Shown in pieces: positions 17,162 to 39,830 of a DNA stretch of 64,000 bases. Below the pieces are notes generated by a model. That model was given only the letters and a program-made list of their open reading frames with translations, was not told where the DNA came from and ran no database searches. Position 1 is the stretch's first letter; every line of letters starts with the position of its first letter. The position numbers and the translations under genes are program-made. Origin of the DNA: Escherichia phage vB_EcoM_G2540-3. The stretch lies in sequence record MK327944.1; one strand, 5' to 3'.

Positions 17162-17201
17162 ACTGTTCTCTATTCAATTGTTATTGGATGGACTTAGATT
17201 C

Positions 17202-17230
17202 ATTATACCACGTTTATACGTGAAGCATTA
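17202..17230 (-). promoter_or_regulatory. MotA-dependent middle promoter upstream of uvsY
   Basis: On - strand: TAATGCTTCA (MotA box) - 13 nt - TATAAT, about 40 nt upstream of the uvsY ATG. Confidence 0.5.
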
Positions 17231-18252: not shown

Positions 18253-18274
18253 ATTTTAGCTCCTTTATTTATCA

Positions 18275-18286
18275 TATTTATAAATA
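18275..18286. promoter_or_regulatory. bidirectional late promoter pair between genes 26 (-) and 51 (+)
   Basis: tatttataaata reads TATAAATA on both strands (18279-18286 on +, 18275-18282 on -). Confidence 0.6.
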
Positions 18287-18303
18287 GAATAAAAGGAGCA
18301 TCT

Positions 18304-19056: not shown

Positions 19057-20225
19057 GTATGTTACAACGTCCTGGATATCCAAATCTCAGCGTTAAATTA
19101 TTTGAGAGTTATGACGCTTGGAGTAATAATAGATTTGTTGAATTAGCTGCTACTATTACCACATTAACTATGCGTGACTCTCTTTATGGTCGAAATGAAG
19201 GAATGCTGCAGTTTTATGATTCTAAAAATATCCACACAAAAATGGATGGAAATGAAATAATTCAAATTTCTGTAGCTAATGCAAACGATATTAATAATGT
19301 TAAAACACGAATTTATGGATGCAAGCATTTTTCCGTGTCAGTAGATTCAAAAGGCGATAACATCATTGCTATTGAATTGGGAACTATTCATTCTATAGAA
19401 AATCTTAAATTTGGTAGACCATTTTTCCCTGATGCAGGTGAATCTATAAAAGAAATGCTTGGTGTCATTTATCAAGACCGCACATTATTAACTCCAGCAA
19501 TAAATGCTATAAATGCTTATGTTCCTGATATTCCATGGACTAGCACATTTGAAAACTATTTGTCATATGTAAGAGAAGTTGCTCTAGCGGTAGGAAGCGA
19601 TAAGTTCGTATTTGTATGGCAAGACATCATGGGAGTTAACATGATGGACTATGATATGATGATAAATCAAGAACCATATCCAATGATTGTAGGTGAGCCA
19701 ACTTTAATAGGTCAATTCGTCCAAGAATTGAAATATCCATTAGCATATGATTTTGTTTGGTTGACTAAATCAAACCCGCATAAACGTGATCCAATGAAAA
19801 ATGCTACTATCTATGCTCATTCATTTTTAGATTCTTCACTGCCAATGATTACTACAGGAAAGGGTGAAAACTCTATTGTGGTGTCAAGGTCAGGTGCTTA
19901 TTCTGAAATGACTTATAGGAATGGATATGAAGAAGCTATTCGTCTTCAAACTATGGCACAATATGACGGCTATGCTAAATGTTCTACTGTCGGTAATTTT
20001 AACTTGACTCCTGGTGTTAAAATTATTTTTAATGATAGTAAAAACCAATTTAAAACAGAATTTTACGTTGATGAAGTTATCCATGAATTATCCAATAATA
20101 ATTCAGTAACTCATCTATATATGTTCACTAATGCAACGAAACTGGAAACAATAGACCCAGTTAAGGTTAAAAATGAATTTAAATCTGATACTACCACTGA
20201 AGAAAGTAGTTCTTCCAATAAGTAA
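19053..20225 (+). CDS. 27: baseplate hub protein gp27
   Basis: 390 aa; ATGA overlap with gene 51. Confidence 0.9.
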
Positions 20226-20706
20226 TAAAGAAGTTTCTATTCCTAAAATGGGTCTTAAACATTATAACATTTTAAAGGATGTTAAAGGTCCTGATGAAAA
20301 TTTAAAACTTCTTATTGATTCTATTTGTCCGAATTTATCACCGGCAGAAGTTGATTTCGTTTCTATTCATTTATTGGAATTTAATGGAAAGATTAAATCT
20401 CGTAAAGAAATAGATGGTTATACTTATGACATTAATGATGTTTATGTGTGCCAAAGATTAGAATTTCAATACCAAGGAAATACATTTTATTTTAGACCTC
20501 CTGGAAAATTTGAACAATTTTTAACGGTGAGCGATATGTTATCCAAATGCTTGCTTAAGGTCAATGATGAAGTTAAAGAAATTAATTTTCTTGAGATGCC
20601 AGCATTCGTTTTAAAATGGGCAAATGATATTTTTACAACTTTAGCAATTCCTGGCCCTAATGGTCCAATAACCGGAATTGGCAATATTATTGGATTATTT
20701 GAATGA
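20173..20706 (+). CDS. 28: baseplate hub distal subunit gp28
   Basis: 177 aa; overlaps 3' end of gene 27 in another frame. Confidence 0.8.
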
Positions 20707-22475
20707 AAAAGCCACAAGAAATGCAAACGATGCGTAGAAAAGTTATTTCAGATAATAAACCAACACAGGAAGCGGCTAAATCCGCTTCTAACACTTTATC
20801 TGGACTTAACGATATATCTACGAAATTGGATGATGCTCAAGCTGCTTCTGAATTAATTGCTCAAACTGTTGAAGAAAAATCGAATGAAATAATTGGAGCA
20901 ATTGACAATGTAGAAAGCGCAGTGAGTGATACTACTGCTGGTTCTGAGTTAATTGCTGAAACTGTCGAAATTGGCAATAATATTAATAAAGAAATCGGTG
21001 AATCGCTCGGAAGTAAATTAGATAAATTAACGAGTTTACTCGAGCAAAAAATCCAGACAGCCGGAATTCAACAAACAGGAACTAGTTTAGCTACGGTTGA
21101 AAGCGCTATTCCTGTTAAAGTTGTTGAGGACGATACAGCTGAATCCGTGGGTCCTTTATTACCAGCTCCTGAAGCAGTTAATAATGATCCTGATGCTGAT
21201 TTTTTCCCTACCCCTCAGCCAGTTGAACCTAAACAAGAATCGCCAGAAGAAAAACAGAAAAAAGAAGCATTTAACTTAAAATTATCTCAAGCTTTAGATA
21301 AATTAACAAAGACTGTTGATTTTGGATTTAAGAAATCTATTTCAATTAGTGATAAAATATCAAGCATGTTATTTAAGTATACCGTTAGTGCTGCTATTGA
21401 AGCTGCTAAAATGACTGCAATGATATTGGCTGTTGTTGTTGGAATAGATCTGTTGATGGTTCACTTCAAATATTGGTCAGATAAATTTTCGCAGGCATGG
21501 GATTTGTTTAGTACAAACTTTACCAAATTCTCTAGCGAAACCGGAACGTGGGGTCCTTTATTACAGAGCATCTTTGATTCTATTGATAAAATTAAACAAC
21601 TTTGGGAAGCGGGAGATTGGGGTGGATTGACAGCAGCTATTGTTGAAGGACTCGGAAGTGTTCTTTTTAATTTAGGTGAACTTATTCAATTAGGTATGGC
21701 TAAATTATCTGCTGCAATTCTTCGAGTCATTCCTGGTATGAAGGATACTGCTGATGAAGTAGAAGGAAGAGCATTAGAAAATTTCCAAAATTCTACTGGA
21801 GCATCTCTCAATAAAGAAGACCAGGAAAAAGTTGCAAATTATCAAGATAAACGAATGAATGGAGACCTTGGTCCGATAGCAAAAGGATTAGATAAAATTG
21901 CTAATTGGAAAACTCGTGCATCTAATTGGATTCGTGGAGTTGATAATAAAGAAGCACTAACTACTGACGAAGAGCGTGCGGCAGAAGAAGAAAAATTAAA
22001 GCAACTTTCACCTGAAGAAAGAAAAAATGCTTTAATGAAGGCTAATGAAGCCCGTGCCGCAATGATTCGCTTTGAAAAATATGCTGATTCAGCTGATATG
22101 AGTAAAGACTCAACGGTTAAATCAGTTGAAGCTGCCTATGAAGACCTTAAAAAACGGATGGATGACCCGGATTTAAATAATTCACCGGCAGTTAAAAAAG
22201 AACTTGCTGCTAGATTTTCTAAAATTGATGCTACTTATCAAGAGCTCAAGAAAAATCAGCCTAATGCCAAACCTGAAACTTCTGCTAAATCACCAGAAGC
22301 GAAACAAGTCCAGGTGATTGAAAAGAACAAAGCACAGCAAGCTCCTGTTCAACAAGCATCTCCTTCAATCAATAATACTAATAATGTTATTAAGAAAAAT
22401 ACTGTCGTTCATAATATGACACCCGTAACGAGCACGACTGCTCCTGGTGTATTTGATGCGACTGGAGTTAATTAA
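20703..22475 (+). CDS. 29: baseplate hub / tail length determinant gp29
   Basis: 590 aa, Ala/Glu-rich helical protein; conserved position. Confidence 0.9.
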   Translation: MKKPQEMQTMRRKVISDNKPTQEAAKSASNTLSGLNDISTKLDDAQAASELIAQTVEEKSNEIIGAIDNVESAVSDTTAGSELIAETVEIGNNINKEIGESLGSKLDKLTSLLEQKIQTAGIQQTGTSLATVESAIPVKVVEDDTAESVGPLLPAPEAVNNDPDADFFPTPQPVEPKQESPEEKQKKEAFNLKLSQALDKLTKTVDFGFKKSISISDKISSMLFKYTVSAAIEAAKMTAMILAVVVGIDLLMVHFKYWSDKFSQAWDLFSTNFTKFSSETGTWGPLLQSIFDSIDKIKQLWEAGDWGGLTAAIVEGLGSVLFNLGELIQLGMAKLSAAILRVIPGMKDTADEVEGRALENFQNSTGASLNKEDQEKVANYQDKRMNGDLGPIAKGLDKIANWKTRASNWIRGVDNKEALTTDEERAAEEEKLKQLSPEERKNALMKANEARAAMIRFEKYADSADMSKDSTVKSVEAAYEDLKKRMDDPDLNNSPAVKKELAARFSKIDATYQELKKNQPNAKPETSAKSPEAKQVQVIEKNKAQQAPVQQASPSINNTNNVIKKNTVVHNMTPVTSTTAPGVFDATGVN

Positions 22476-22483
22476 GGAATAAT

Positions 22484-23578
22484 ATGGCAATTGTTAAAGA
22501 AATAACTGCTGATTTAATTAAAAAGTCTGGTGAGAAAATTTCAGCCGGACAGAGTACTAAATCAGAAGTAGGAACTAAAACATACACTGCCCAGTTTCCA
22601 ACTGGGCGTGCTAGTGGTAATGACACTACAGGGGACTTCCAGGTAACAGATCTATATAAGAATGGATTATTATTTACTGCATACAATATGTCATCTAGGG
22701 ATTCTGGAAGTCTTAGATCGATGAGATCTAACTACTCTTCTTCATCTTCGAGTATTTTACGTACAGCTAGAAACACTATTAGTAGTACAGTATCAAAACT
22801 ATCAAATGGATTAATATCAAATAATAATTCAGGAACAATAAGTAAAGCTCTTGTCGCAAACATTCTTTTACCGAGATCTAAATCTGATGTTGACACATCA
22901 TCACATAGATTTAATGATGTTCAAGAAAGCCTTATCAGTAGAGGCGGAGGTACTGCTACTGGTGTGCTAAGTAATGTTGCTTCAACCGCAGTATTTGGGG
23001 CACTGGAAAGTATAACACAAGGTATAATGGCTGATAATAATGAACAGATTTATACGACAGCCAGAAGTATGTATGGTGGTGCTGAAAATAGAACTAAAGT
23101 GTTTACATGGGATTTGACTCCACGTTCAACAGAAGATTTAATGGCTATTATTAATATCTATCAATATTTTAACTATTTTTCTTATGGTGAAACAGGTAAA
23201 TCTCAATACGCTGCTGAAATAAAGGGGTATTTAGATGATTGGTATCGTTCTACGTTAATTGAACCTTTATCTCCGGAAGACGCAGCTAAAAATAAAACAC
23301 TATTTGAGAAAATGACAGCAAGTTTAACGAACGTTCTAGTAGTTTCAAACCCGACAGTTTGGATGGTGAAAAACTTTGGCGCAACATCTAAGTTTGATGG
23401 AAAAACGGAAATATTTGGTCCATGCCAAATACAGAGCATTAGATTTGATAAAACCCCTAATGGTAACTTTAACGGATTAGCTATTGCTCCAAACCTCCCT
23501 AGTACATTTACTCTCGAGATTACTATGAGAGAAATTATCACGTTAAACCGTGCTTCTTTATATGCGGGGACTTTTTAA
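22484..23578 (+). CDS. 48: baseplate tail tube cap gp48
   Basis: 364 aa; conserved position. Confidence 0.9.
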   Translation: MAIVKEITADLIKKSGEKISAGQSTKSEVGTKTYTAQFPTGRASGNDTTGDFQVTDLYKNGLLFTAYNMSSRDSGSLRSMRSNYSSSSSSILRTARNTISSTVSKLSNGLISNNNSGTISKALVANILLPRSKSDVDTSSHRFNDVQESLISRGGGTATGVLSNVASTAVFGALESITQGIMADNNEQIYTTARSMYGGAENRTKVFTWDLTPRSTEDLMAIINIYQYFNYFSYGETGKSQYAAEIKGYLDDWYRSTLIEPLSPEDAAKNKTLFEKMTASLTNVLVVSNPTVWMVKNFGATSKFDGKTEIFGPCQIQSIRFDKTPNGNFNGLAIAPNLPSTFTLEITMREIITLNRASLYAGTF

Positions 23579-24543
23579 TGTATTCTTTAGAGGAATTTAA
23601 TAATCAAGCAATAAACGCAGATTTCCAACGTAATAATATGTTTAGCTGCGTTTTTGCAACAACTCCATCAACTAAAAGCTCTTCGTTGATAAGTTCAATT
23701 AGCAACTTTTCTTATAATAACTTGGGCCTAAATTCAAATTGGTTAGGATTAACTCAAGGTGATATTAATCAGGGAATTACCACGCTAATTACCGCTGGCA
23801 CACAAAAACTAATAAGAAAATCAGGAGTCAGTAAATATCTTATTGGTGCCATGAGTCAACGTACTGTCCAGAGTTTATTAGGCTCATTTACAGTCGGTAC
23901 ATATTTAATCGATTTCTTTAATATGGCGTATAATTCATCTGGATTGATGATATATTCTGTAAAAATGCCAGAGAATAGATTATCCTATGAAACTGACTGG
24001 AACTATAATTCTCCTAATATTCGTATAACTGGGAGAGAATTAGACCCTTTGGTTATTTCATTTAGAATGGATTCAGAAGCTTGTAACTATCGTGCAATGC
24101 AAGACTGGGTTAACTCCGTTCAAGACCCAGTAACTGGACTACGTGCTTTGCCGCAAGATGTCGAGGCAGATATTCAGGTTAATCTTCATTCTCGTAATGG
24201 ATTGCCTCATACTGCGGTGATGTTCACCGGATGCATTCCAATATCAGTGAGCGCTCCTGAGTTATCGTATGATGGAGATAACCAAATAACTACATTTGAT
24301 GTTACTTTTGCGTATAGAGTGATGCAGGCTGGAGCAGTTGATAGGCAAGCTGCGCTTGAATGGCTTGAATCTGCTGCTATAAATGGTATTCAAAGCGTTC
24401 TCGGAAATAGTGGAGGTGTTACTGGACTATCTAATTCGCTTTCACGACTCAGTAGATTAGGTGGAACTGCAGGAAGCATTTCAAACATTAATACTATGAC
24501 AGGAATTGTCAATTCGCAAAGTAAAATATTAGGAGCAATATAA
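23578..24543 (+). CDS. 54: baseplate tail tube initiator gp54
   Basis: 321 aa; overlapping stop/start with gene 48. Confidence 0.9.
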   Translation: MYSLEEFNNQAINADFQRNNMFSCVFATTPSTKSSSLISSISNFSYNNLGLNSNWLGLTQGDINQGITTLITAGTQKLIRKSGVSKYLIGAMSQRTVQSLLGSFTVGTYLIDFFNMAYNSSGLMIYSVKMPENRLSYETDWNYNSPNIRITGRELDPLVISFRMDSEACNYRAMQDWVNSVQDPVTGLRALPQDVEADIQVNLHSRNGLPHTAVMFTGCIPISVSAPELSYDGDNQITTFDVTFAYRVMQAGAVDRQAALEWLESAAINGIQSVLGNSGGVTGLSNSLSRLSRLGGTAGSISNINTMTGIVNSQSKILGAI

Positions 24544-24547
24544 CAAT

Positions 24548-24565
24548 GGGGACCGAAAGGTCCCC
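24548..24565. terminator. bidirectional terminator between gene 54 (+) and the alt-downstream ORFs (-)
   Basis: GGGGACCGAAAGGUCCCC followed by atatttttattt. Confidence 0.6.
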
Positions 24566-24571
24566 ATATTT

Positions 24572-24862
24572 TTATTTACGGAATGAAATGAAAGCAGCAA
24601 CTGAAGCAACTAAACTGTCTTCAATATAAACTTCAATTTTTACCGGAGCTTCTGACTCAAATTTACCTGTTACTACACCCTGAAAAATACTTTCAGTCTG
24701 TTCTGGCTTTGAAAAATTTTCAGAAGGAAAAATTCCAAACTTTTTATCTGTTCCGAAAATTTTGATAAATTCATCATAAACTGCTTCATTAAAAGCATTA
24801 TCAGCAGGAATAACGCCTTCAACTACAAGTTCTTGACCTAAAAAGCGTAAAGAAGATTTCAT
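24572..24862 (-). CDS. hypothetical protein (alt.-3-like)
   Basis: 96-aa ORF with GAGGA Shine-Dalgarno and the 54-bp early promoter cassette directly upstream. Confidence 0.6.
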   Translation of the reverse strand: MKSSLRFLGQELVVEGVIPADNAFNEAVYDEFIKIFGTDKKFGIFPSENFSKPEQTESIFQGVVTGKFESEAPVKIEVYIEDSLVASVAAFISFRK

Positions 24863-24869
24863 TTTGTGT

Positions 24870-24923
24870 TCCTCATGTTATGTCAGTAAGACTACTATAA
24901 CACAACACGAGGGACTTGTAAAC
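24870..24923 (-). promoter_or_regulatory. early promoter and leader cassette, copy A
   Basis: - strand: GTTTACAAGTCCCTCGTGTTGTGTTATAGTAGTCTTACTGACATAACATGAGGA (TTTACA -35, TATAGT -10, GAGGA SD); identical to 38159-38212. Confidence 0.55.
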
Positions 24924-25280
24924 TACATTTTGAACTTTTTAGTACGCGTAATAGGCATGCGTCGATTTTATACTGTTTCATTGTTTGAAGAGCAGTATCA
25001 AAAACAGCATTAATGACACCAATTGGATTTCCACCCAAGTTTTTAAGCTTAACTAATGATAGTTTCTCATTAACACCTATCATTACGATATGCATCATTT
25101 TATCGCCCGGCTTAACGTTTTATTCGTATCACCGCCAGAGGTGTATGTACAAAATCTAAATCCAGGAAGCACGCTTTCTTCGCCGGCTTGAATAGCAAAA
25201 ATTTGTGGTATTTTATGCTTAGGATTTAAGTTAACAACCGGCGCCGAAGCGCCGTCAAATAATTCTGTAATAAGTTCCAT
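24895..25280 (-). pseudogene. partial paralog of the alt 5' region (~ first 125 codons) split over two frames
   Basis: MELITELFDGASAPVVNLNPKHKIPQIF...FCTYTSGGDTN and MMHIV...QYKIDACLLRVLKS parallel alt residues 1-130; 1-nt difference versus alt at gataaaatgatg shifts the frame. Confidence 0.5.
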
Positions 25281-25283
25281 GAT

Positions 25284-27393
25284 TTATCCTTGAACGAACT
25301 TGTAAGGCATGTTTGCAATATCTATGCAAGACGCAATAATTCCAAGAGATGATTCTACTTTCTGTTTAACATTTGATGAAACAAATGATGCAAAGTCAAC
25401 TCTATCTTCTATATCACCTGTCATTGTAACCAATTCACCAGTTTCCATTAAACGGTCACCGTCATAGATTACCGATTCGGTGAGTTCTTCTGTGGTCATA
25501 ACTTCAGCTTGAATAAGCTTGTTGTTAGTTCTAACTGTTCCATCGTTGTAAGATGCATCGGTTATTTTATTAACTTTGACCATTAATCCACGTGGCAAAA
25601 TGACTTCCATTTCATTTGAAGGCGCTAAACTTCCACCGGGTAAAACAACATTGACCTTATCAGCCCCAGTAATAACCCGCTAAACTTCCACCGGGTAAAA
25701 CAACATTGACCTTATCAGCCCCAGTAATAACCCATCCAATTCCAACTAAATTATCGCTAGAATTTACTAGTCCTTCATCAGTTTTATCAATAGAAACACT
25801 TAGACGCTTTTCGTCTGGTAAAACACCTATAGATGAATCAGTCATCCAAGTACCAAAAATATTTGGATATAATGATGTTGACACAAAGTTTCTAAAATAA
25901 AAAACTCGATTTTTTACCATTGCTTCATATATTGAAGGTAACATTCGTTGTGAACGATACAAAGTAATACCTTTTGGTAATCGTTCACCATTTTTAAAGG
26001 CTGAATCTAAATTATCAATGGCTTGTTCTATTTCAGGTGCTGTTAAAATACTTGTACGCTCATCTGGATTATATAATCCCAAAAGAGCATTATTTATGTC
26101 TACATATCCTGAACCTACATATTCACGAATTCCGCGTTTTTGCGCTGGTGTGTATTTAGATGAATCTTTATTTTCGACTATAGGATGTAATGACCATCCA
26201 GCGGTAAGAGCATATCCACGTAATTCTCTTCGAATAATCTTTGTTTTTATTGCATTCCAAGAATTTTGCACTAACTCATTATTCGCAGCGTCTTGATTTA
26301 AATGCGAATGTCTGTTAATATTTCTTTCAAACCAGGCACCTTTATATTTTTCTAAAGTATCATCGACGATAGAAGCAATAGTTTCTAAAGTTTTTATTGA
26401 AGTAATAGATTCTTTTCGTAATTTTTCTAAAGCTTTATTTTTTATTTCTGCATTAATAATGGATTCTTTATCTTCAGGAATTATAGAAGCTTCTCTGAAT
26501 GCCATCCCAGCTGTAACACTGCTAAGAGCATTCTCTAGTGCAAATCCTGAAGTAGAAATTACCGTTAATTCATTAGAATCAGAAATTAAAGGCGCGTCCG
26601 CTGGTTTATTTAATTCTGCCGCTGAAGCCTCAAATTTTTGAAACATCGGTGTTTCAAATCTAGAAGATTCCAATGACTGACTTTGTGCAATTGCTCTACG
26701 GGAAATTTTAACTTTAACGATTACAGCTTGGTCAGAACGTTTATCATTTTCTTGTGCAATAGATGCTGCAATTGCCTCATTTTTAGTTACTTGAGCTCCA
26801 GTATCTTTATTGATATAAACATCACCGACCTTCGATTCAACTTTAGTAAAGAGCTCGGTACTAATTTCCGGAACCCCTGGAATGTCTTCTAGTGATACAT
26901 TTTTGCGATGTATAAGAATATATGCATACTTTTTATCATAATCCCAGAGTTCCTTAAGAAGGACGTATCTGCCACCTGAACGACTACGGATAAGTCTATC
27001 AGCAATAACTTGAATTTGTCGAGCTTGGCCAGCAGTTTTAGACTTAAGAATACGAAGCATACAAGCATCAATTTTATACTGACGCATTGTTTGCATTGCA
27101 ACAGTAAAAACCGAATTGATATAATTAATTGGGCTTGGACCAAGACCTTTCAATTTAGCAATTGAACCTTTAGCGGTTAATGTAAAAGGAACAATATGCA
27201 TCATTTTATCGCCCATCTTTAAATCACGATTAGTATCACCTCCAGATGTATAGGTACATAAACGAAAGCCTGGTTGTTCAATTGCGTCATCAACATGAAC
27301 TGAAAAAATTTGCGGTATTTTCTTCTTTGGATTTAAGTTTGTAATCGGAAGAGTAGTATCTTCGTCAAATAATTCTGTAATTAGTTCCATCAT
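25284..27393 (-). pseudogene. alt: alt (capsid-packaged ADP-ribosyltransferase), frame broken by a 55-bp tandem duplication
   Basis: 577-aa ORF 25660-27393 with R...STS motif, then 108-aa ORF 25284-25610 in another frame; deleting one repeat copy restores a 684-aa frame. Confidence 0.8.
25624..25733 (-). repeat. perfect 55-bp direct tandem duplication inside alt
   Basis: gctaaacttccaccgggtaaaacaacattgaccttatcagccccagtaataaccc at 25624-25678 and again at 25679-25733, 100 percent identical. Confidence 0.95.
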
Positions 27394-27412
27394 ATCCTCT
27401 CTAGTGTTTATT

Positions 27413-27420
27413 CTATTTAT
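27413..27420 (-). promoter_or_regulatory. late promoter TATAAATA upstream of alt (- strand)
   Basis: tatttata on + strand reads TATAAATA on -, about 20 nt before the alt ATG. Confidence 0.5.
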
Positions 27421-27442
27421 AAAATTAAAGGCCCGAAGGCCT

Positions 27443-27631
27443 TTAGTAATCTAGTGGTAAGAGAGTACGATATATTTCAAACTTTGGTCCTTTTTCATAG
27501 GCATCAAATGTTTCTGTGAATTTATTATAAGCGTATGCATCTACAAATTCGAGAATGACTTGTGATACAGAAGTAGAAACATCTCCACCTTCTTTTTGAG
27601 CAATGACAATTGTTTCTAAGTAAGCTTTCAT
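27443..27631 (-). CDS. hypothetical protein
   Basis: 62-aa ORF; ATGA overlap with gene 30 stop. Confidence 0.5.
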   Translation of the reverse strand: MKAYLETIVIAQKEGGDVSTSVSQVILEFVDAYAYNKFTETFDAYEKGPKFEIYRTLLPLDY

Positions 27632-29091
27632 AGACCAGTTACCTCATGAAAATCACCAAATACATCTTCGAACGTATTAGCTTTAGTTTTATCTTCGCGT
27701 AAACGAATCGCAATCGGAAGAAATAATTTAACGTAATCAGTGCGGCCATCAGATTTTAACCAACCGTTGCATTCGCACTCTAGAATTTTTCCAATATAAT
27801 AATTTTGGTTTTCCATAATGCGAGTACGGTCAAGTTCATGCGATTTTACACCGGCTTTATCTTTTAAGCCTGAACCAGCATTTACCTTAATTTTTCCACA
27901 CTCTGACTCAAGAATAAATCCACCTGCTTTAGTAGGGTCTTTACGGTGAGGATAAATTCCTACAATTTTTAAATCAACATCAATTACTTCTTTAAATTTA
28001 TAGAGATTTTTTGAACGAGCATTTTCCCATAATCCATCGATATTTTTGAGAATAATACCTTCAAGACCTTGGTCAATATACTTTTTATAAATTACCTTAG
28101 CTTCATCTAGGTTATTTACTACCTGGTTTTCAATTAAAATTACTTTATCATAGCCTGATGTCATTTGTTCTAGTTTAGAAAAACGTACATCATATTTCAA
28201 ACGAAATGCAGGAAGACCGTATATTTCTACCAACGGAACATAATCCCAGACCTGAAACTTCATGCATTGAGCTTCTTTTTCAGAAATGGTTCCCTTTAAA
28301 GATTTATTGGCGATGCCATTAGATGCAGTACGTGATTCAGCTACTTCTGTGAAGTCTTTAACTTTACTGTTTTCAGGATGAGCATCAAAAAGAAAATCTA
28401 GGCCTTCTGGCTCCTTTTTAACTTGCTCATGGTATACCAATTCGCCATCAATTAACACGCCTTCTGGATGAATCTGGCGGGCTTCAGCGGTCATTTTGAT
28501 TAATTCTTCCTTAAGAAGATCTAATCCTAGATATTCATTACCGGCTCGTGATAAAAGACGAACATCATCTAATTCATCACCTCTGACTTCGGCAAAGCAC
28601 CGAGCCCCATCAGCTTTTAACTGGGCAAAGGCTGGAAATTTGATATTCTTATTAATGCCTTTTTCATCATAAGAACTTGCAAGCATTTGAGGTTGTTCAG
28701 GAATTAAACCTGGCCAAACTTTGTTTGCAATAGATACTGAAGCACCACATTCAAGGTCTCGCATCATCACTCGACGCAAAACTTCAACATCATCTTTTTT
28801 ACCATCGGTGATATATCCAGATAATTCCTCAATTGCCGCATTTCCGGTCAATTTCCGAGTAGCTAACGTGAATTCAATGAAGTCAAGCATATCGGTAAGA
28901 GTCAACATTCCAAAACTCTGGGTAGCAATACCAGGTTTAGGCCATTTCTTAATATAATACTGCAACCCACGAGAATAAGTCAGACGATATACTCGTTTAA
29001 GCAATTCATTATCTTTATTCTTTTCAAGAATTGCTTGCTTCTGCTTAGTTGAACCAATAGATGCTATTTCGTTCAGAATTTTAAGAATCAT
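27628..29091 (-). CDS. 30: ATP-dependent DNA ligase gp30
   Basis: 487 aa; MILKILNEIASIGSTKQKQAILEKNKDNELLKRVYRLTY... with active-site KADGAR. Confidence 0.95.
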   Translation of the reverse strand: MILKILNEIASIGSTKQKQAILEKNKDNELLKRVYRLTYSRGLQYYIKKWPKPGIATQSFGMLTLTDMLDFIEFTLATRKLTGNAAIEELSGYITDGKKDDVEVLRRVMMRDLECGASVSIANKVWPGLIPEQPQMLASSYDEKGINKNIKFPAFAQLKADGARCFAEVRGDELDDVRLLSRAGNEYLGLDLLKEELIKMTAEARQIHPEGVLIDGELVYHEQVKKEPEGLDFLFDAHPENSKVKDFTEVAESRTASNGIANKSLKGTISEKEAQCMKFQVWDYVPLVEIYGLPAFRLKYDVRFSKLEQMTSGYDKVILIENQVVNNLDEAKVIYKKYIDQGLEGIILKNIDGLWENARSKNLYKFKEVIDVDLKIVGIYPHRKDPTKAGGFILESECGKIKVNAGSGLKDKAGVKSHELDRTRIMENQNYYIGKILECECNGWLKSDGRTDYVKLFLPIAIRLREDKTKANTFEDVFGDFHEVTGL

Positions 29092-29357
29092 TATTTATCC
29101 TTCAGAGTTTGATTTACAGTTCTATTATAAATCAATTCATCATTAAGCTCAGGCAAAGACTTATGATATGTAGTTCTAACTTTATTTCCTTGCATCCAGT
29201 GCTTGACGTAAATGAAACCTTGCTCTACACATTTTTTAAAAATTCGTTCGTCTTTTTGAGCTCGGAATTCTGGATTGCATCTAAAAAATTGATTTACGTG
29301 ACCGTAATCACGTGTAGTATTACCTTCATTTTCATAAATAGTGTGAACAACAAACAT
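29091..29357 (-). CDS. hypothetical protein (30.1-like)
   Basis: 88-aa ORF in tight early operon array. Confidence 0.55.
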   Translation of the reverse strand: MFVVHTIYENEGNTTRDYGHVNQFFRCNPEFRAQKDERIFKKCVEQGFIYVKHWMQGNKVRTTYHKSLPELNDELIYNRTVNQTLKDK

Positions 29358-30196
29358 TAGAATGCTCCTTGGAAAATATTATCACCACAAGTAGGTCTAT
29401 TATACAAATACTCTATACCGCCGGGTTTAATATAGTTCCATGTCTGAAACGGATGCGTCTGATATGGATGATATAGATGATTATAAGGATTAAATCCAGG
29501 AGTTCTCCAGGTAGTGTTCCAAGGAAAAGAATCGTTTTTAATCATCTTTTCAATTACATCTTTTATAGCTTTTTCACTATCAAAACTTTCTTTATTTTCC
29601 TTTGGTGAAAAAAGCTTATTCTCTACATCGTTCCATGTATAAACTCGCTGAGCAGTTTTTGGAATACTGTCACGTTCCCCTCGAGCCATCCAATAAACAG
29701 GAACACTTAATATTTCACTCGCGTGGTCGCAGTGGTGAGCGAGATCGTCAATATAACAAATTACGTTATATTTCTCTTTTGCCTTTTTGAACAACTCTTC
29801 TTTTGAAGAATCATGACCACACATCAGTACTTCTGAGAAGGCACCAGGAAAAAGAGCATTCAAATTAAATTGACGATTCAGCAGAGCGTCAATAGAATCA
29901 CCCAGTGCTGTAACAGCTACAAAATTATAATCTTCTTTTAATTTGTTAATTACACACAGGGCATCTTTATATGGCGACAAGTAACGAATAAAATCTGAAC
30001 GATTGTATTTTTCAATTAGCTTAACGCCAAGTTCTTCATCACAATTAAAAAGTTTACCAGGAGAAATAAATTTCTCATCTTGGATCATTTTTAAAATATG
30101 TTCTAACGGAAGATTATATTTCTGAGCAAAATAAGGAAGGCCTGATTGCCAGCTTAAACATACTCCATCAATATCAGTTAAAATAGTAGGCTTCAT
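29357..30196 (-). CDS. HAD-superfamily hydrolase-like protein (30.2-like)
   Basis: 279 aa; N-terminal DIDGV resembles HAD motif I. Confidence 0.6.
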   Translation of the reverse strand: MKPTILTDIDGVCLSWQSGLPYFAQKYNLPLEHILKMIQDEKFISPGKLFNCDEELGVKLIEKYNRSDFIRYLSPYKDALCVINKLKEDYNFVAVTALGDSIDALLNRQFNLNALFPGAFSEVLMCGHDSSKEELFKKAKEKYNVICYIDDLAHHCDHASEILSVPVYWMARGERDSIPKTAQRVYTWNDVENKLFSPKENKESFDSEKAIKDVIEKMIKNDSFPWNTTWRTPGFNPYNHLYHPYQTHPFQTWNYIKPGGIEYLYNRPTCGDNIFQGAF

Positions 30197-30657
30197 AGAG
30201 AGTCTCTTAATAGGTTTAACACATCAATAAATTCAGCTTCGGTTAGTATTGTATCATCTTTTGTTAGACCACTAGCCATGCTGTGCTTCAAAACTTTTCC
30301 TTTCGAGGCTAGTAATGCATCACGAAAGCCCTTGTTTTGAATCGCTGCTTCAAAATATGCATTTGTGTATAATTCTTTCCACGCCGGGGAGTATCTTGAA
30401 AACGGAACTCCGAGCCAGAAGAGGGTCCCACGGTCCTGAGCTCTTGCATAAGACCTTCCAGCTTGCTGTGCGGCAAGCCCGGATAACCCAAATATACGAC
30501 GTTGTTGTTCAACATTTTTCACCTTACACCCTTGGAGGAATCCTTCGAGACCTCCAAATTGAATACCATCCATGACGAAAGGCCATTGGGCGAAATTACT
30601 TAATGCACATGATGGCCACCTAAAATTGCTTCTAATCTCTAACTCAGACATTTTCAA
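30193..30657 (-). CDS. NADAR (YbiA-like) domain protein (30.3-like)
   Basis: 154 aa; LSNFAQWPFVMDGIQFGGLEGFLQGCK parallels the YbiA/NADAR core SNFA.WP..vDG...E..fQ..K. Confidence 0.65.
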   Translation of the reverse strand: MKMSELEIRSNFRWPSCALSNFAQWPFVMDGIQFGGLEGFLQGCKVKNVEQQRRIFGLSGLAAQQAGRSYARAQDRGTLFWLGVPFSRYSPAWKELYTNAYFEAAIQNKGFRDALLASKGKVLKHSMASGLTKDDTILTEAEFIDVLNLLRDSL

Positions 30658-30850
30658 TGCTTATAATTTCAACATCAGCCCAATGACCATAGCAAGGAAG
30701 ACGAAATTCAACTGGCCAGTTAGGGTCCTTTTCTAATATAATAGACTCAACTCGTGGTTCTTCACGTTCATCAGTATATGGATTTTTATCTGTTACTTTA
30801 TATGTGACCTTAATGTACTGAATTCCAAAAATCTTATTAATTATATTCAT
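30644..30850 (-). CDS. hypothetical protein
   Basis: 68-aa ORF in overlapping early array. Confidence 0.45.
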   Translation of the reverse strand: MNIINKIFGIQYIKVTYKVTDKNPYTDEREEPRVESIILEKDPNWPVEFRLPCYGHWADVEIISIENV

Positions 30851-31044
30851 ACTAATTCCTTTAATCCGTAGATAGGAGATAATTCATCACCCATACGAAG
30901 GTCTTCATTTCCATCTACCCAGGAAACAATATAAGCCTCTTTTATTTGAATACCACTCCATTTAAATGGAGGTAGAACCTTAGAAATTAATCCAGGTATA
31001 CCAACTCCCTTTAATTCAACAGTTTGACCTAAAAAGAATTTCAT
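30847..31044 (-). CDS. hypothetical protein
   Basis: 65-aa ORF in overlapping early array. Confidence 0.45.
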   Translation of the reverse strand: MKFFLGQTVELKGVGIPGLISKVLPPFKWSGIQIKEAYIVSWVDGNEDLRMGDELSPIYGLKELV

Positions 31045-31331
31045 TAGAACCTCATCTGAAAACCGTGCGATTTAACATTACCGCCGCCAATATCAGAAAT
31101 GTTAATTTCACGCGCAATTGAAGGGTCAATGTCAATTTCGCGATTGAGTTTAGTGATAGCTAAAGTATCACGCCCATTTACAGTACGGAACTCTAGAGGA
31201 CAAACCACATTAACGTAGTTTTTAATCGATTCACTGGTAGGTTGCAAATGAGCAGGAAGGTCTTTAGGCGCCTTAGAAAAAACCACTTCACAGAAGTTTT
31301 TACGAGTATCAAAATAAGTAGTCATAAACAT
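31044..31331 (-). CDS. hypothetical protein
   Basis: 95-aa ORF; ATGA-type overlap with downstream gene. Confidence 0.5.
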   Translation of the reverse strand: MFMTTYFDTRKNFCEVVFSKAPKDLPAHLQPTSESIKNYVNVVCPLEFRTVNGRDTLAITKLNREIDIDPSIAREINISDIGGGNVKSHGFQMRF

Positions 31332-31372
31332 AGTATTTTCCTCAGCAAGGGGCCGAAGCCCCTCATTTTATT

Positions 31373-31750
31373 TTAAATATCAAATTCGTTAAGAACTACA
31401 TCAAAGATTGCTTCAAGATGCTCAGGTTTAGCTCTATTACTCAGAATATGACGAATCCAAGTTTTAACCAGAAGCTTGCGATTAACGCCATTCCAGCAAG
31501 GATGAGTCCCTAAATCGCGTTGACGAAAATCATCATCCAAAGCAATTTTGAAGTTGGAACCTTCCATTGTGATTGAAACCGTGATGCCATTTTCAAATCG
31601 CATATAAACGTAGTTAGGAGTCATATACTGTTCAATTTCGCATACTGATCCATTTTGATGTTTCCAAAGGCAGATAGTATCAATAGAACCTGCAATACCA
31701 TTAGAAACATATTTACGTTCAAAGTTGATGTAGTTCATTTTATTCTCCAA
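31373..31750 (-). CDS. hypothetical protein
   Basis: 125-aa ORF followed by GGGGCUUCGGCCCC hairpin at 31349-31362. Confidence 0.5.
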   Translation of the reverse strand: MENKMNYINFERKYVSNGIAGSIDTICLWKHQNGSVCEIEQYMTPNYVYMRFENGITVSITMEGSNFKIALDDDFRQRDLGTHPCWNGVNRKLLVKTWIRHILSNRAKPEHLEAIFDVVLNEFDI

Positions 31751-31805
31751 GATGTTTAATTGCGGTACAGGTATATAATATCATATCCTGTACCAAAGTA
31801 AACAA

Positions 31806-32138
31806 TTATTTTACTACTTTCCAATGCTGCATGTCAAGTTTACCAACTTTTTTCATCTTCTCAATTAAGCGTTCGGCACGTTGGCGAGCTGTAACATAAT
31901 ACCATTCACCTAATTCATTTTGTTCAATTTTTCCAACGATTACTGTATTCAATTCATAAATCCAACCAGTAAAGAAATTATGAACTTGAATTGTAAAGGT
32001 GAAATCTGTTCCCATACCTTCTGTTGTTTCTACTTCAATAATATCACCTTCAACTGCCATTAAAAACCACATAGTTTCATCATATTTACCATTGAAGCAT
32101 TTAGTTTTAACCGCAGCGTTCAGATTAATCGTTTTCAT
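31806..32138 (-). CDS. hypothetical protein
   Basis: 110-aa ORF. Confidence 0.5.
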   Translation of the reverse strand: MKTINLNAAVKTKCFNGKYDETMWFLMAVEGDIIEVETTEGMGTDFTFTIQVHNFFTGWIYELNTVIVGKIEQNELGEWYYVTARQRAERLIEKMKKVGKLDMQHWKVVK

Positions 32139-32248
32139 TTTATTCTCCTTTGTTTGTGTAAGATAATACTATCACAAAGGAACCATACTGTAAACAACTT
32201 TGTGCAATCTTTGGAAAATAAAAAAGGACTCCCGAAGGAGTCCTTAAC

Positions 32249-32425
32249 TTATGCTTTCTGCTTACCAAAACGAGAAGCATCATCTCGAAGAACCGCACGT
32301 GCTCGGCGCATGATCTTCTCAACAGTTTGATTGATACGAGAGTTCGACCCACGCTTGTAACCAGCGCGTTTAGAATCACCAACTTTCTTTTCAACTGCTT
32401 TCTTTGCTTTAGCTTGTTTTGCCAT
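32249..32425 (-). CDS. small basic Lys/Arg-rich protein
   Basis: 58 aa from ATG 32425 (MAKQAKAKKAVEKK...); terminator hairpin 32226-32243 downstream. Confidence 0.5.
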   Translation of the reverse strand: MAKQAKAKKAVEKKVGDSKRAGYKRGSNSRINQTVEKIMRRARAVLRDDASRFGKQKA

Positions 32426-32670
32426 TATAAATTCTCTTTTAAATGAAAATGCAGGACTTATTGGCATTGCCTGCGCAAGCCCTCAAGGGGAACATAGGTT
32501 TTTGGATATTTAACGACCAGGATAACCATAAACCCGTCATCATTCACATTCAAGAGGTACACCATAAAACTGCCGGGGTCTTAAAACTATAATGATTCGC
32601 AAATCATTAATCAGACAGTTCGATGGCTCCTCGATTTTAGCTCACACTAAGGCAGTGACTCTCCAATAAA

Positions 32671-32919
32671 TTACTTCAGTGTTACCACAAAGTGACGAAC
32701 TGCTTTTCGTGCAGCAGAAGCCAAAGGCTTAGCATATTTAAGTTCATCTTTTTCCTGAAGCTCAGCAGCTAATGCAGTTTGAGCAGGATTTAGATGTTTG
32801 AAATAACGCAGGATTTCAAGAGCTTCGGCTTCAACATCAATAGATGCGCCATAGTTTTCGTGACCATTATTCCATGCGTTTCGTTGCAGTTCAAGAGCGT
32901 GTTGTAATTGTTTAATCAT
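32671..32919 (-). CDS. rIII: RIII lysis inhibition accessory protein
   Basis: 82 aa; MIKQLQHALELQRNAWNNGHENYGASIDVEAEALEILRYF... Confidence 0.9.
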   Translation of the reverse strand: MIKQLQHALELQRNAWNNGHENYGASIDVEAEALEILRYFKHLNPAQTALAAELQEKDELKYAKPLASAARKAVRHFVVTLK

Positions 32920-33066
32920 TTAAAAATTCTCGTTAGAGATTAAAACTCGGTAGTCACGTTCTTCTGAATTTCATCTTCTTTCGACAGATCTCTCAGTTGT
33001 AGACTACCACGTAGAATTGTTCGGTTAACTTATTATTCCGACACCCAATTCATATTATTATTTATA

Positions 33067-33402
33067 TCACTTATAAAGACATGGAATAGCTTTATAGTGG
33101 CAAGTGACGAATTTTTGTTTAATTTCTTTTGGCTGCTTAAGACCCAGAGCTACAAAAGGATGCGGAACGTTTCGAATTTGACCAACTGGAAGAGAAGTCA
33201 AATCACCAACTTCACAAAAACCTTCAGGAACATCATGACCGACAGAGTGAATTACACACAGTTCAGGAACTTCACCTTGAACACGTTTACCGATAATAAG
33301 TCCTGATTCTGTAACTTCTTCATCACCGGCTTGTGCAGGTTCAGAAACTAAAATAACATATTCACCTACAGCACGAATTGGTAGCTGTTGTACTTCAGAC
33401 AT
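33067..33402 (-). CDS. 31: gp31 co-chaperonin (GroES-like, capsid folding)
   Basis: 111 aa; [40 protein letters not shown]... Confidence 0.95.
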
Positions 33403-33458
33403 CGTTTTTCCTTTTTGTTAACAGATGAATTAATAATAACAAATAATTCTTAAAGCAT

Positions 33459-33767
33459 TTATTTACCAATAAATTGAAGCAAATGCTCAACTTTCATACC
33501 ATTAACGGAAATCAATTTGTCAATAGAAAAACCTCGCCATGCACCAAGCTCAACATCAAATACTGGAATCATGTCAGTAGATTCTTTCCGAGTAGATTCA
33601 GTCAATTTGCCAGTTTGCATGGTTGGCATAAAGTCTGCATCACGAGTACCTTTCATAGTACGAATAGTACCGTCAGACTTTTCAAAAACTACGTTTGAAA
33701 TACCCATGGACAATTTAGTTTTTAAAATTTCGCGAATTGCTACTTTCTGCTCAGTTGTCAGTTTCAT
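33459..33767 (-). CDS. hypothetical protein (31.1-like)
   Basis: 102-aa ORF. Confidence 0.55.
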   Translation of the reverse strand: MKLTTEQKVAIREILKTKLSMGISNVVFEKSDGTIRTMKGTRDADFMPTMQTGKLTESTRKESTDMIPVFDVELGAWRGFSIDKLISVNGMKVEHLLQFIGK

Positions 33768-34004
33768 TTATTTACCTATCACAGTTTTAATATGAGTTGT
33801 TCCACGTTCTTTAAGGGTGGAAAGTAATTTTTGGCATTTTTCTAAATCAGATTTCCAACTATATGGTCTATCAATACTAGTCCAATCAGTTTTATAATAC
33901 TGTTTCCATTTAGAGAAAAAATATTTCTTATACTCTACAGCAAATGAGATGTTCTCATTAGAATAAGAACTAATTGCTGTGAGCTTTACCAAACGAAATT
34001 TCAT
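33768..34004 (-). CDS. hypothetical protein (31.2-like)
   Basis: 78-aa ORF. Confidence 0.5.
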   Translation of the reverse strand: MKFRLVKLTAISSYSNENISFAVEYKKYFFSKWKQYYKTDWTSIDRPYSWKSDLEKCQKLLSTLKERGTTHIKTVIGK

Positions 34005-34585
34005 TATTCACCACAGAATTCGTTGATATTTTCCCAGTTTAACTTATTCAAGTTTTTCTTAGGAACATTAAACACTTCAATACCTGCATTTCGCAGAATA
34101 TCATCCCAACCAGGTTTATTTTTATCGTATGTTTCACAATAAACCAGCTTTTTAATTCCAGATTGAGCTATTGCTTTTGCACAATCTGGGCAAGGAGAAA
34201 GTGTTACATACATAGTAGCACCTTCAATAGAAGAACCATTTCGTGCAGCAAACAAAATTGCATTTAGTTCAGCATGAATTTCATTTTTAGATGACCATTC
34301 CGAGTGAGCACTACGATGTTCTTTCGCCAAGACAAAACGATCAGTTGAACCAAATGATACGCATTCAGGCTTATGGCCTTGAATGATAGTATGTTTAGGC
34401 TTATTCAACAACCATCCTTGCTCAGCAGCATAATCACAACAGTTCACACCTCCTGCGGGTGAACCATTATACCCAGTAGAAATAATACGTCCATTCTTTT
34501 CAATTACTGCTCCTACCTTCCAGGAGCAACATTTTGATTCCTGCGATACTAAATATGCAATTTGAAGTACTGTACTCGCTTTCAT
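34004..34585 (-). CDS. cd: dCMP deaminase
   Basis: 193 aa; zinc-binding HAELNAI ... PCPDCAK cytidine/deoxycytidylate deaminase motifs. Confidence 0.95.
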   Translation of the reverse strand: MKASTVLQIAYLVSQESKCCSWKVGAVIEKNGRIISTGYNGSPAGGVNCCDYAAEQGWLLNKPKHTIIQGHKPECVSFGSTDRFVLAKEHRSAHSEWSSKNEIHAELNAILFAARNGSSIEGATMYVTLSPCPDCAKAIAQSGIKKLVYCETYDKNKPGWDDILRNAGIEVFNVPKKNLNKLNWENINEFCGE

Positions 34586-34920
34586 TTCATAATCACCAGA
34601 TAAGCAGATTTAGTAGTTTCAACACGATAAATTTCGTGACGAAGTTTAGTTATACTTTTAATAACAGAACTAATTATATTCTGCCCATCTTTAAAGCGGT
34701 TTTTCTTATCAATAAAAACTGCGCCAGTCATCTTTTTGTGAAGCTCAACTGGATACTTCGTCACAATAATAGCATCATACACAGAAGGATGAATACTATT
34801 CACCAGAGTATCATTCATTAAAGTTATTCTAATGAACTTTGCTGTTTCAGAGTCAAGCGCTCTATGATCACCAGTATCATTTTCAAGACAATTATCAATT
34901 ATATCAGTTAAATTCATCAT
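34582..34920 (-). CDS. hypothetical protein (cd.1-like)
   Basis: 112-aa ORF; ATGA overlap with cd. Confidence 0.55.
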   Translation of the reverse strand: MMNLTDIIDNCLENDTGDHRALDSETAKFIRITLMNDTLVNSIHPSVYDAIIVTKYPVELHKKMTGAVFIDKKNRFKDGQNIISSVIKSITKLRHEIYRVETTKSAYLVIMK

Positions 34921-35156
34921 AGTACGCCATACACCCTTTGTGCTTCAACTAATCCATCAAAATCCAATTTGAGATGTGTTATTTGATCACCATCACCTGG
35001 ATTCACAATTACTAATACTGAACGAGGAGTTTCGGTAATAACACGAACCGATGTTTCAGGAAATCGTTCAGAAACCTTATTTACTAATTCCTGTGCAAAT
35101 AGTTTAACTTTTTCTTGGAATTCTTTAACAGTAATTGGTTTTTCACTTAGCAGCAT
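34917..35156 (-). CDS. hypothetical protein (cd.2-like)
   Basis: 79-aa ORF. Confidence 0.5.
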   Translation of the reverse strand: MLLSEKPITVKEFQEKVKLFAQELVNKVSERFPETSVRVITETPRSVLVIVNPGDGDQITHLKLDFDGLVEAQRVYGVL

Positions 35157-35217
35157 TTTGTTTTCCTCATTTGTTTGGTAGAGCTATAATATCACAACTC
35201 TACCGTAAAGTAAACTA

Positions 35218-35493
35218 TTAAATCGCTTTGAATTCCGCAGTTTGAGATTCAAAGCGAATGTCGCCTTTGATAACTAACTCAGCATCAAGACCGAATACAA
35301 CAATGATATGCGCGGAACCTGGATACAGCGTAATGGCAACAGAATCCACCTGGTCTGGAAGCAAAGTGTTCAATACATGAGTCACTTGAGCGTGGATTCG
35401 AAGCTCAGCTGCATTATCAAGTTTTTCAAACATATTATTAGCTATAATTTGGCTAAACACTACTTCTACGATTTTAGAGTAAGTCGGAAACAT
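35218..35493 (-). CDS. hypothetical protein
   Basis: 91-aa ORF. Confidence 0.5.
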   Translation of the reverse strand: MFPTYSKIVEVVFSQIIANNMFEKLDNAAELRIHAQVTHVLNTLLPDQVDSVAITLYPGSAHIIVVFGLDAELVIKGDIRFESQTAEFKAI

Positions 35494-35557
35494 ATTTACC
35501 TCACATAATTTTCTTCAAGCCAATTAATAATATCCCAAGTTTCATGGTGCAAAGCCA

Positions 35558-36783
<1,226 letters not shown>

Positions 36784-36786
36784 TTA

Positions 36787-37017
36787 TTATTTCTCAACCA
36801 ATGATTGAATATAATCATGCAGGTCTTTAGATGCTTTACCCCACTTATTTTGGTATTCATTTTTAAGATTAGCCCGAGATTGAGCTAATAAAACATCATT
36901 AGTTGGAGGTAAAGATTCTAATCGCTGAATCTGGCGTCCATAAATCATTGCAGCCATCTCGGATTCATAAATCAATCCTTTGAGATGTTCAAATTGATGC
37001 CATGAAATCATTTGCAT
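36787..37017 (-). CDS. hypothetical protein
   Basis: 76-aa ORF. Confidence 0.45.
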   Translation of the reverse strand: MQMISWHQFEHLKGLIYESEMAAMIYGRQIQRLESLPPTNDVLLAQSRANLKNEYQNKWGKASKDLHDYIQSLVEK

Positions 37018-37307
37018 TTATCCTCTTTTAACTCTTGACGATAATAACATATCATAGTTTTCTGATCATGTACATATCGTTTTACATCATTAAGCCAAAT
37101 GCGAAATTCCTGGGAATCTTCAAATGGCATACCGACCCAAGCTTTACCATCAATAACTTTAACTTGCCAGGATAGTTTAGCTTCATCGTATGACTTTATT
37201 TGTACTGGCCAATTAGGATGAACTGTTTCTTTCTTTACTTCTAGAGGCTTTGTCGAACAACCAACTAGAAGACCAATAGATAATATTACTGCTGATAGTC
37301 TAATCAT
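37008..37307 (-). CDS. outer-membrane spanin lipoprotein (o-spanin, pseT.2-like)
   Basis: 99 aa; signal peptide with lipobox LLVGC (MIRLSAVILSIGLLVGCSTKP); adjacent to i-spanin. Confidence 0.7.
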   Translation of the reverse strand: MIRLSAVILSIGLLVGCSTKPLEVKKETVHPNWPVQIKSYDEAKLSWQVKVIDGKAWVGMPFEDSQEFRIWLNDVKRYVHDQKTMICYYRQELKEDKCK

Positions 37308-37657
37308 TTAGAAAGGTCCTGGATGTCTTCTGCGAACTTGTTGAAGGAGTTGTTGATTTGTTTTTCAACCAATCCTGGCTTATGAGCCACCACATCCGCC
37401 TTCTTTGCGTCTTTGCGCAGTTTTTCATTTTCACGCTCAATAGCAGCAATTGCCTCACGATTTTTATTATTCATCGCATCAATATAATTATACTGAATTC
37501 GCAAATTATTTAATGCTAAAGCGTTTTCATTGGCCGTTTTTGTAATTTCTACAACAGACGTTTCTAATCTTTCAATTTTATTTTTTAAAATTAAAGAAGT
37601 TCCGCCCAATGCAATTACAATTAATAACAAGCCTGCTGTCGTATTACTTAATTGCAT
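37304..37657 (-). CDS. inner-membrane spanin (i-spanin, pseT.3-like)
   Basis: 117 aa; N-terminal TMD LLLIVIALGGTSLIL then coiled-coil-like region; overlaps o-spanin start. Confidence 0.7.
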   Translation of the reverse strand: MQLSNTTAGLLLIVIALGGTSLILKNKIERLETSVVEITKTANENALALNNLRIQYNYIDAMNNKNREAIAAIERENEKLRKDAKKADVVAHKPGLVEKQINNSFNKFAEDIQDLSK

Positions 37658-38154
37658 AAAGTTTTAATAACCTCTATAATATCGTCTTGAGAAAGACCGT
37701 TAATTAAAATATGATGTTCAGCCGGAGATTTAGAAATTTTAAAGCATGCCTCAACATCTTCTGCCATATCCGATGCGCTACGATTTGGATTACTAATCCC
37801 AAGGCGGTGTTTTCCCGTCAAAGGATTAACGATGATATAGCATTTACAACTATTGATATGAACATTAGGCTGAGTCTGATTAATGAACACTTCACAATCA
37901 TACTTAGCGAGTTGATTTTCTAAAAAGACTTTCATCTCTTCAACCGCATCAGGAAGCATATCACGGGCTTGCTCAAGACGACGATTTCGATATTCTTTAA
38001 TGGTCGTTTTCCGCTTGACTTGCTTAGCTAAATCTTTCTTAAGATCGGTGATATATCCAACTCGACGATTTCCTTTGAATACAGAAATCCCATCTGTAGT
38101 ATCACCGTATGCTTCAACGACCATTTCAGTAGTAATAAGTTGTAAATCCATCAT
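37648..38154 (-). CDS. alc: Alc, inhibitor of host transcription on C-containing DNA
   Basis: 167-168 aa (two adjacent ATG); MMDLQLITTEMVVEAYGD...; promoter cassette copy B directly upstream. Confidence 0.85.
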   Translation of the reverse strand: MMDLQLITTEMVVEAYGDTTDGISVFKGNRRVGYITDLKKDLAKQVKRKTTIKEYRNRRLEQARDMLPDAVEEMKVFLENQLAKYDCEVFINQTQPNVHINSCKCYIIVNPLTGKHRLGISNPNRSASDMAEDVEACFKISKSPAEHHILINGLSQDDIIEVIKTLCN

Positions 38155-38158
38155 AAAG

Positions 38159-38212
38159 TCCTCATGTTATGTCAGTAAGACTACTATAACACAACACGAG
38201 GGACTTGTAAAC
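38159..38212 (-). promoter_or_regulatory. early promoter and leader cassette, copy B (upstream of alc)
   Basis: 54 bp identical to 24870-24923; -35 TTTACA, 17-nt spacer, -10 TATAGT, GAGGA SD 4 nt before ATG. Confidence 0.55.
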
Positions 38213-38215
38213 AGC

Positions 38216-39803
<1,588 letters not shown>

Positions 39804-39830
39804 AATAAAATGGGCCTTGCGGCCCACTCC

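Follow-up and report, generated by a model that had tools for sequence, protein, structure and literature searches.

Gene 30.3 of Escherichia phage vB_EcoM_G2540-3 is a T4-type adfN, very probably encoding a NADAR enzyme that counters DarTG1

A 64,000-nucleotide stretch of Escherichia phage vB_EcoM_G2540-3 (MK327944.1; hereafter the window) carries an uninterrupted minus-strand open reading frame (ORF) at 30193..30657. A first-pass annotation, made from the sequence alone, read this ORF as a NADAR (YbiA-like) domain protein with a plausible role in reversing DNA ADP-ribosylation. The locus therefore raises the question of which protein is encoded here, whether it is a NADAR at all, and against which target and which defense system it would act. 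Our analysis indicates that the feature is already known as T4 AdfN: the gene is, very probably, the T4-type adfN (gene 30.3), encoding a NADAR enzyme that counters DarTG1 by guanine de-ADP-ribosylation. gp30.3 was first recognized bioinformatically as a NADAR clade in a study cited by the experimental papers, its biochemistry dates from 2024 (PMC11125620), and its biological role dates from 2025 (PMC11825919).

The product is identical to T4 gp30.3 at 150 of 152 residues, the differences being Q114L and I125M, and it has the same sequence as gp30.3 of phage LZ (100% identity). In total, tblastn matched it in 1510 phage records (71 of them with at least 99% identity), nearly all of which label the protein “hypothetical protein.” With the gathering threshold over the full model as the criterion for membership, the product belongs to Pfam PF08010 (Phage_30_3), which it matches at model positions 1 to 138 of 138 with 235 bits against a cut-off of 36; the matching PHROGs families, phrog_652 and phrog_1017, carry no function. 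The T4 gene order is kept (alt, alt.1, 30 [ligase], 30.1, 30.2, 30.3, 30.4, 30.5, 30.6, 30.7, 30.8), and the region is ∼98% identical to Tequatrovirus phages such as slur03 and fPS-90. With T4 AdfN, that is, gp30.3, the window protein shares the position between 30.2 and 30.4, the length, the residues Glu36, Lys43, and His123, and the C-terminal helix (PMC11825919, PMC11125620). At the nucleotide level, adfN differs from T4 30.3 at nine sites, seven synonymous and two non-synonymous. The PF08010 score, the 1510 tblastn records, and this 7:2 split show that the ORF is a genuine gene, not a reading frame that arose by chance.

The open frame reported by the first-pass annotation stands, but its length of 154 amino acids, counted from a TTG at 30657, places the start two codons too far upstream. 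An ATG at 30649..30651 yields 152 amino acids, and the T4 annotation of gene 30.3 (459 nucleotides, 152 amino acids) begins at the equivalent ATG. We prefer this start because the published E36/K43 numbering fits no other. The Methods of one paper (PMC11125620) describe the T4 NADAR construct as “gp30.3; residues 1-208,” against 152 amino acids for T4 gp30.3, a discrepancy that probably stems from a tag or from a typing error.

The relationship to NADAR proteins was assessed with a family alignment and profile of 59 diverse homologues (35 to 86% identity). Pfam NADAR (PF08719) was matched individually by 24 of the 59, with a best E value of 1.5e-7. Searched against the PDB, the profile retrieved E. 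coli YbiA at E = 0.0067, pairing LSNF...mEGFLqslK with FSNF...SEHYFQAQK, and hhalign aligned the family to YbiA and the Phytophthora NADAR with 96.5% probability across residues 1 to 152. The NADAR alpha+beta fold, a helical core with two small beta-hairpins on its flanks, was found. The NADAR link is thus visible at the family-profile and fold level only, and the feature falls within the gp30.3/AdfN(T4) clade (PF08010) of the NADAR superfamily. Together with the T4 papers (PMC11825919, PMC11125620), these profile and structure comparisons support the earlier proposal, in which an enzyme with the NADAR fold undoes ADP-ribosylation of guanine in DNA as an anti-defense function.

The active site points in the same direction. 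The peptide quoted in the first-pass annotation as the NADAR signature, LSNFAQWPFVMDGIQFGGLEGFLQGCK, is present at residues 17 to 43, and the YbiA peptide set beside it is correct, the YbiA sequence used here matching PDB 2b3w_A 1-160 exactly. Residues L17, S18, N19, F20, E36, G37, F38, and Q40 are invariant in the 59 homologues, and the catalytic Glu36 and Lys43 align to the Glu and Lys of YbiA. Their counterparts, E43/K50 in the Phytophthora nicotianae NADAR and E88/K95 in the E. coli C7 NADAR, contact the distal ribose and phosphates of ADP-ribose, and K95 of the C7 enzyme is essential (PMC11543638). E36A abolishes DNA de-ADP-ribosylation by T4 AdfN in vitro, K43A impairs the protein, and both mutants give partial rescue of RB69 (PMC11825919). 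According to the literature, the last strand holds a His in the phage clade where YbiA-type NADARs have Glu and DarG1-type NADARs have Asp. Across the family, residue 122 varies whereas His123 is invariant, which makes His123 the functional candidate. The C-terminal helix and the catalytic set are intact in the window protein. In RB69, a frameshift removes the last 15 residues, and T4 protein cut at that point has reduced activity (PMC11825919).

The published biology of the T4 protein supplies the function. The DarTG1 toxin, DarT1, attaches ADP-ribose to guanine in the DNA of the phage and thereby halts replication; the modification is taken off again by the antitoxin, DarG1, which is itself a NADAR. 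Recombination with RB69 allowed Johannesman et al. (Nat Commun 2025, PMC11825919) to trace the resistance of T2 and T4 against DarTG1 to gene 30.3, for which they introduced the name adfN. Upon adfN deletion, T4 and T2 fail to plaque on DarTG1 hosts; adfN expression rescues RB69, and purified T4 AdfN strips ADP-ribose from DarT1-modified DNA (PMC11825919). T4 AdfN is necessary and sufficient for T-even resistance to DarTG1, not to DarTG2. Cihlova et al. (Toxins 2024, PMC11125620) reported that T4 NADAR hydrolyzes guanosine-ADP-ribose (G-ADPr) but not thymidine-ADP-ribose. The plaque assay suggested in the first-pass annotation, on hosts expressing DarT2-DarG, was therefore directed at the wrong system and would be negative, because AdfN neither counters DarTG2 nor removes thymidine-ADP-ribose; the relevant system is DarTG1.

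Under the proposed mechanism, infection of a host with DarTG1 would lead DarT1 to ADP-ribosylate guanine bases of the phage DNA, blocking its replication. AdfN, a minimal single-domain NADAR made during infection, would then cut the N-glycosidic bond between ADP-ribose and guanine, so that the DNA would be restored and phage replication could resume. Glu36 and Lys43 would position ADP-ribose through its distal ribose and its phosphates, and His123 in the last strand would serve as a clade-specific third active-site residue. The enzyme activity and DarTG1 phenotype of the window allele are expected to match those published for the 99%-identical T4 protein.

Several observations weigh against this interpretation. 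A single-sequence Pfam scan (E ≤ 10) returned PF08010 alone, with PF08719 not matched; single-sequence phmmer against the PDB found no NADAR structure, just a chance match to 3rjz; and no PADLOC model matched the product. The first-pass annotation held that its assignment would fail if profile searches gave no NADAR hit, and the Pfam scan, taken literally, is such an outcome, whereas the family-profile and fold-level comparisons are positive. The PF08719 miss reflects the limited sensitivity of a scan with one sequence and does not indicate non-homology. The active site has its own irregularities, in that the hhalign alignment pairs Lys122, and not His123 one residue later, with the YbiA Glu, leaving the register uncertain by one, and shows the DxxWG motif of classical NADARs to be absent from the family. 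The two substitutions relative to T4 mean that identical behavior of the window allele is presumed from its sequence, although Q114L and I125M are both distant from the named catalytic residues. Finally, AdfN(T4) is not sufficient everywhere, as uninfected E. coli is unprotected from DarT1 and T5 and Bas25 are rescued weakly. AdfN(T4) works even on unmodified T4-GT7 DNA. From the lack of protection in uninfected cells, the weak T5/Bas25 rescue, and the T4-GT7 result, a T-even factor was invoked for full AdfN(T4) activity (PMC11825919).

A DarG1 identity was considered and rejected. The DarG1 group (the BC4488 family, the G. lovleyi NADAR [PDB 8bat], and the E. coli C7 NADAR) carries Asp at the last-strand position and is extended at the N terminus; its genes lie beside darT1, and its members protect uninfected cells. 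In contrast, the window AdfN has a His, consists of the 152-amino-acid core only, and is an orphan between 30.2 and 30.4 with no darT or other ADP-ribosyltransferase gene adjoining, and uninfected cells gain no protection from T4 AdfN. AdfN acts like DarG1, yet lies outside the DarG1 family. AdfN(Bas32) and AdfN(Bas60), of T5-like and Vequintavirinae phages, are likewise orphan phage NADARs that are guanine-specific and counter DarTG1. They fall into NADAR clades different from that of AdfN(T4), have been acquired independently, and do not need T-even infection to act; even in uninfected cells they function as antitoxins.

Among the alternative explanations, the one that survives best, although we consider it very unlikely, holds that the enzyme acts mainly on ADP-ribosylated RNA (e.g., tRNA) or on soluble immune signals derived from ADP-ribose, instead of on DarT1-modified DNA, with the DarTG1 phenotype as one facet of a broader role. 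T4 NADAR does remove G-ADPr from RNA in vitro, but less actively than the E. coli C7 NADAR (PMC11833690), and activity on soluble substrates is hypothetical. Distant gp30.3 homologues lie within tRNA gene clusters of two unrelated phages, Aeromonas phage avDM14-QBC (L004, 3001..3450) and Ralstonia phage RSP15 (L007, 2995..3513), and together with the RNA activity of the T4 enzyme these locations may indicate a link with RNA. However, such locations may just mirror the gathering of accessory genes in hypervariable regions, and the sole in vivo phenotype shown is DarTG1-specific and dependent on the catalytic residues. A third distant homologue, in Sinorhizobium phage phiM9 (L006, 3070..3429), lies near DinG-like helicase and endonuclease V genes.

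It is still less probable, to the point of being negligible, that the product is an N-glycosidase of the YbiA type, with a housekeeping task in destroying reactive intermediates of the riboflavin pathway and no defense role. E. coli YbiA (PDB 2b3w), which is tied to riboflavin metabolism and swarming, and the P. nicotianae NADAR (PDB 8bau) share ∼20% identity with gp30.3. Both carry a last-strand Glu and DxxWG, which gp30.3 is without, and both remove cytidine-ADP-ribose, on which later work found no T4 NADAR activity. The only NCBIfam match was a sub-threshold one to TIGR02464 (12.2 bits against a cut-off of 73.7; E = 0.17). A YbiA identity was rejected on this score, on the variability of position 122 next to the invariant His123, and on the lack of the WG motif, and T4 and T2 genetics connect the gene to DarTG1. 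Least credible of all is that the window allele is an inactive remnant like that of RB69, which proves that natural loss-of-function alleles occur, as the broken alt gene in the same window (see below) might also suggest, but the window allele has a full-length ORF with its C-terminal helix, an intact Glu36, Lys43, and His123, a 7:2 ratio of synonymous to non-synonymous differences from T4, and an identical protein in phage LZ among its many near-identical relatives.

The preferred reading, that of a T4-type AdfN acting on guanine-ADP-ribosylated DNA, leaves a role for the T-even factor, and the translationally coupled downstream gene 30.2 is an unlikely candidate for it. If 30.2 were that factor, its contribution might be to process the ADP-ribose once released, to process the DNA end, or to stabilize or localize AdfN. 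The two genes are distributed almost equally among phage records (30.2 in 1439, 30.3 in 1510), and 30.2 adjoins 30.3 in Acinetobacter phage Berthold and Providencia phage PSTRCR_121. In the Aeromonas Biquartavirus phages (avDM14-QBC/31.2), however, 30.3 lies within the tRNA cluster while 30.2 is still beside the ligase gene; CC31 has 30.2 without an adjoining 30.3, and in Vibrio D480, phiM9, and RSP15, 30.3 has different neighbors. On the basis of these separations, 30.2 was rejected as an obligate partner of 30.3. Across T4-like phages, 30.2 tends to remain beside the ligase gene, and the proposal that it is the factor is weakened because it stays there where 30.3 moves in several lineages.

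The first-pass annotation also described the 30.2 product as HAD-like. Residues D8-x-D10-G, T96, K132, and D150-D151 are invariant across nine diverse homologues and correspond to the four-motif HAD pattern, but no significant database match accompanies them: 30.2 had no significant Pfam match, and its weak matches were just PDB 2jao (E = 1.4) and phrog_415 (E = 0.0036). A profile of the nine sequences retrieved nothing relevant from the PDB, and a single-sequence AlphaFold model had a predicted local distance difference test score (pLDDT) of 34.9. The HAD-like label is plausible but unproven. The features of the locus are collected in Table 1.

Table 1. Coordinates of adfN, its functional elements, and its junctions with neighboring genes in the 64,000-nucleotide window
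Feature	Coordinates	Strand	Remarks
adfN (T4 gene 30.3) coding sequence	30193..30651	minus	152 amino acids plus TGA stop; predicted phage-clade NADAR DNA ADP-ribosylglycohydrolase
30.4/adfN overlap, 8 nucleotides	30644..30651	minus	Stop of upstream 30.4 (TGA, 30644..30646) against the adfN ATG
N-terminal NADAR signature LSNFAQWPFVMDGIQFGGLEGFLQGCK, LSNF...GLEGFLQGCK, residues 17-43	30523..30603	minus	Paired by profile and hhalign with YbiA FSNFAAWPIKVDGKTWPTSEHYFQAQKF
Glu36 codon (GAA), catalytic; coordinates distal ribose in NADARs	30544..30546	minus	Invariant in 59 homologues; aligned to Glu of YbiA SEHYF
Lys43 codon (AAG), catalytic; phosphate coordination	30523..30525	minus	At least 90% conserved in 59 homologues; aligned to Lys of YbiA QAQKF
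His123 codon	30283..30285	minus	Invariant in 59 homologues; in predicted strand 120-123
C-terminal alpha-helix, residues 138-151, intact	30199..30240	minus	Predicted helix; ORF reads to the same stop as T4
adfN/30.2 ATGA overlap	30193..30196	minus	adfN stop over the gene 30.2 start
Gene 30.2, 279 amino acids, conserved	29357..30196	minus	Four HAD-phosphatase motifs; variable C-terminal tail

The G+C content of adfN is 42.9%, against 36.3% for the window, which places it at the 95th percentile among windows of equal length. This value is compatible with the published idea of acquisition from a bacterial DarG1-like gene, although the difference alone is weak. A promoter/terminator scan around adfN gave 18 against 15.5 in shuffles, i.e., no better. 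T4 is also annotated with an internal ORF, 30.3′ (75 amino acids), in another frame inside adfN; here it lies at 30309..30515 on the minus strand and is shortened by a TAG that arises from the same nucleotide change as AdfN Q114L. Relative to T4, the 30.3′ frame contains five amino acid changes and a stop, compared with two changes in the adfN frame, which argues against 30.3′ being a conserved coding frame.

Elsewhere in the window, the earlier remark that the phage encodes ADP-ribosyltransferases needs qualification. The alt gene (RNA polymerase ADP-ribosyltransferase, 682 amino acids in T4), the ADP-ribosyltransferase gene of the window, is present at 25284..27393 on the minus strand but contains a perfect 55-bp tandem duplication at 25623..25733. 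The resulting frameshift leaves a 577-amino-acid ORF that covers positions 1 to 153 of 196 of the Pfam ADPrib_exo_Tox model, with the remainder in a separate 108-amino-acid ORF. The duplication is missing in all 12 of the best-matching phage records listed, in which the match spans 186 nucleotides instead of 241, and it represents either a private mutation that abolishes function or an artifact of assembly. The strongest G+C peak of the window (54%) coincides with a 259-amino-acid ORF at 62194..62973 on the plus strand, which contains long glycine runs and directly follows a 982-amino-acid long-tail-fiber-like ORF at 59209..62157. We take this 259-amino-acid ORF to resemble a gp38 adhesin of the T2/T6 type, not the gp38 chaperone of the T4 type. 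An Rfam scan of the whole window (1..64000) found no family at the gathering score (e.g., no group I intron); tRNAs were not searched separately.

AdfN is a published case of a lytic phage that carries an orphan homologue of a bacterial antitoxin and enzymatically reverses DNA ADP-ribosylation. For annotation, the consequence is that phage vB_EcoM_G2540-3 should be predicted to be DarTG1-resistant, and we suggest the label adfN/NADAR ADP-ribosylglycohydrolase instead of “hypothetical protein.” Beyond rediscovery, the biology of interest lies in the T-even factor that potentiates AdfN, the effect of the His-for-Glu swap in the last strand, and possible other substrates of the enzyme.
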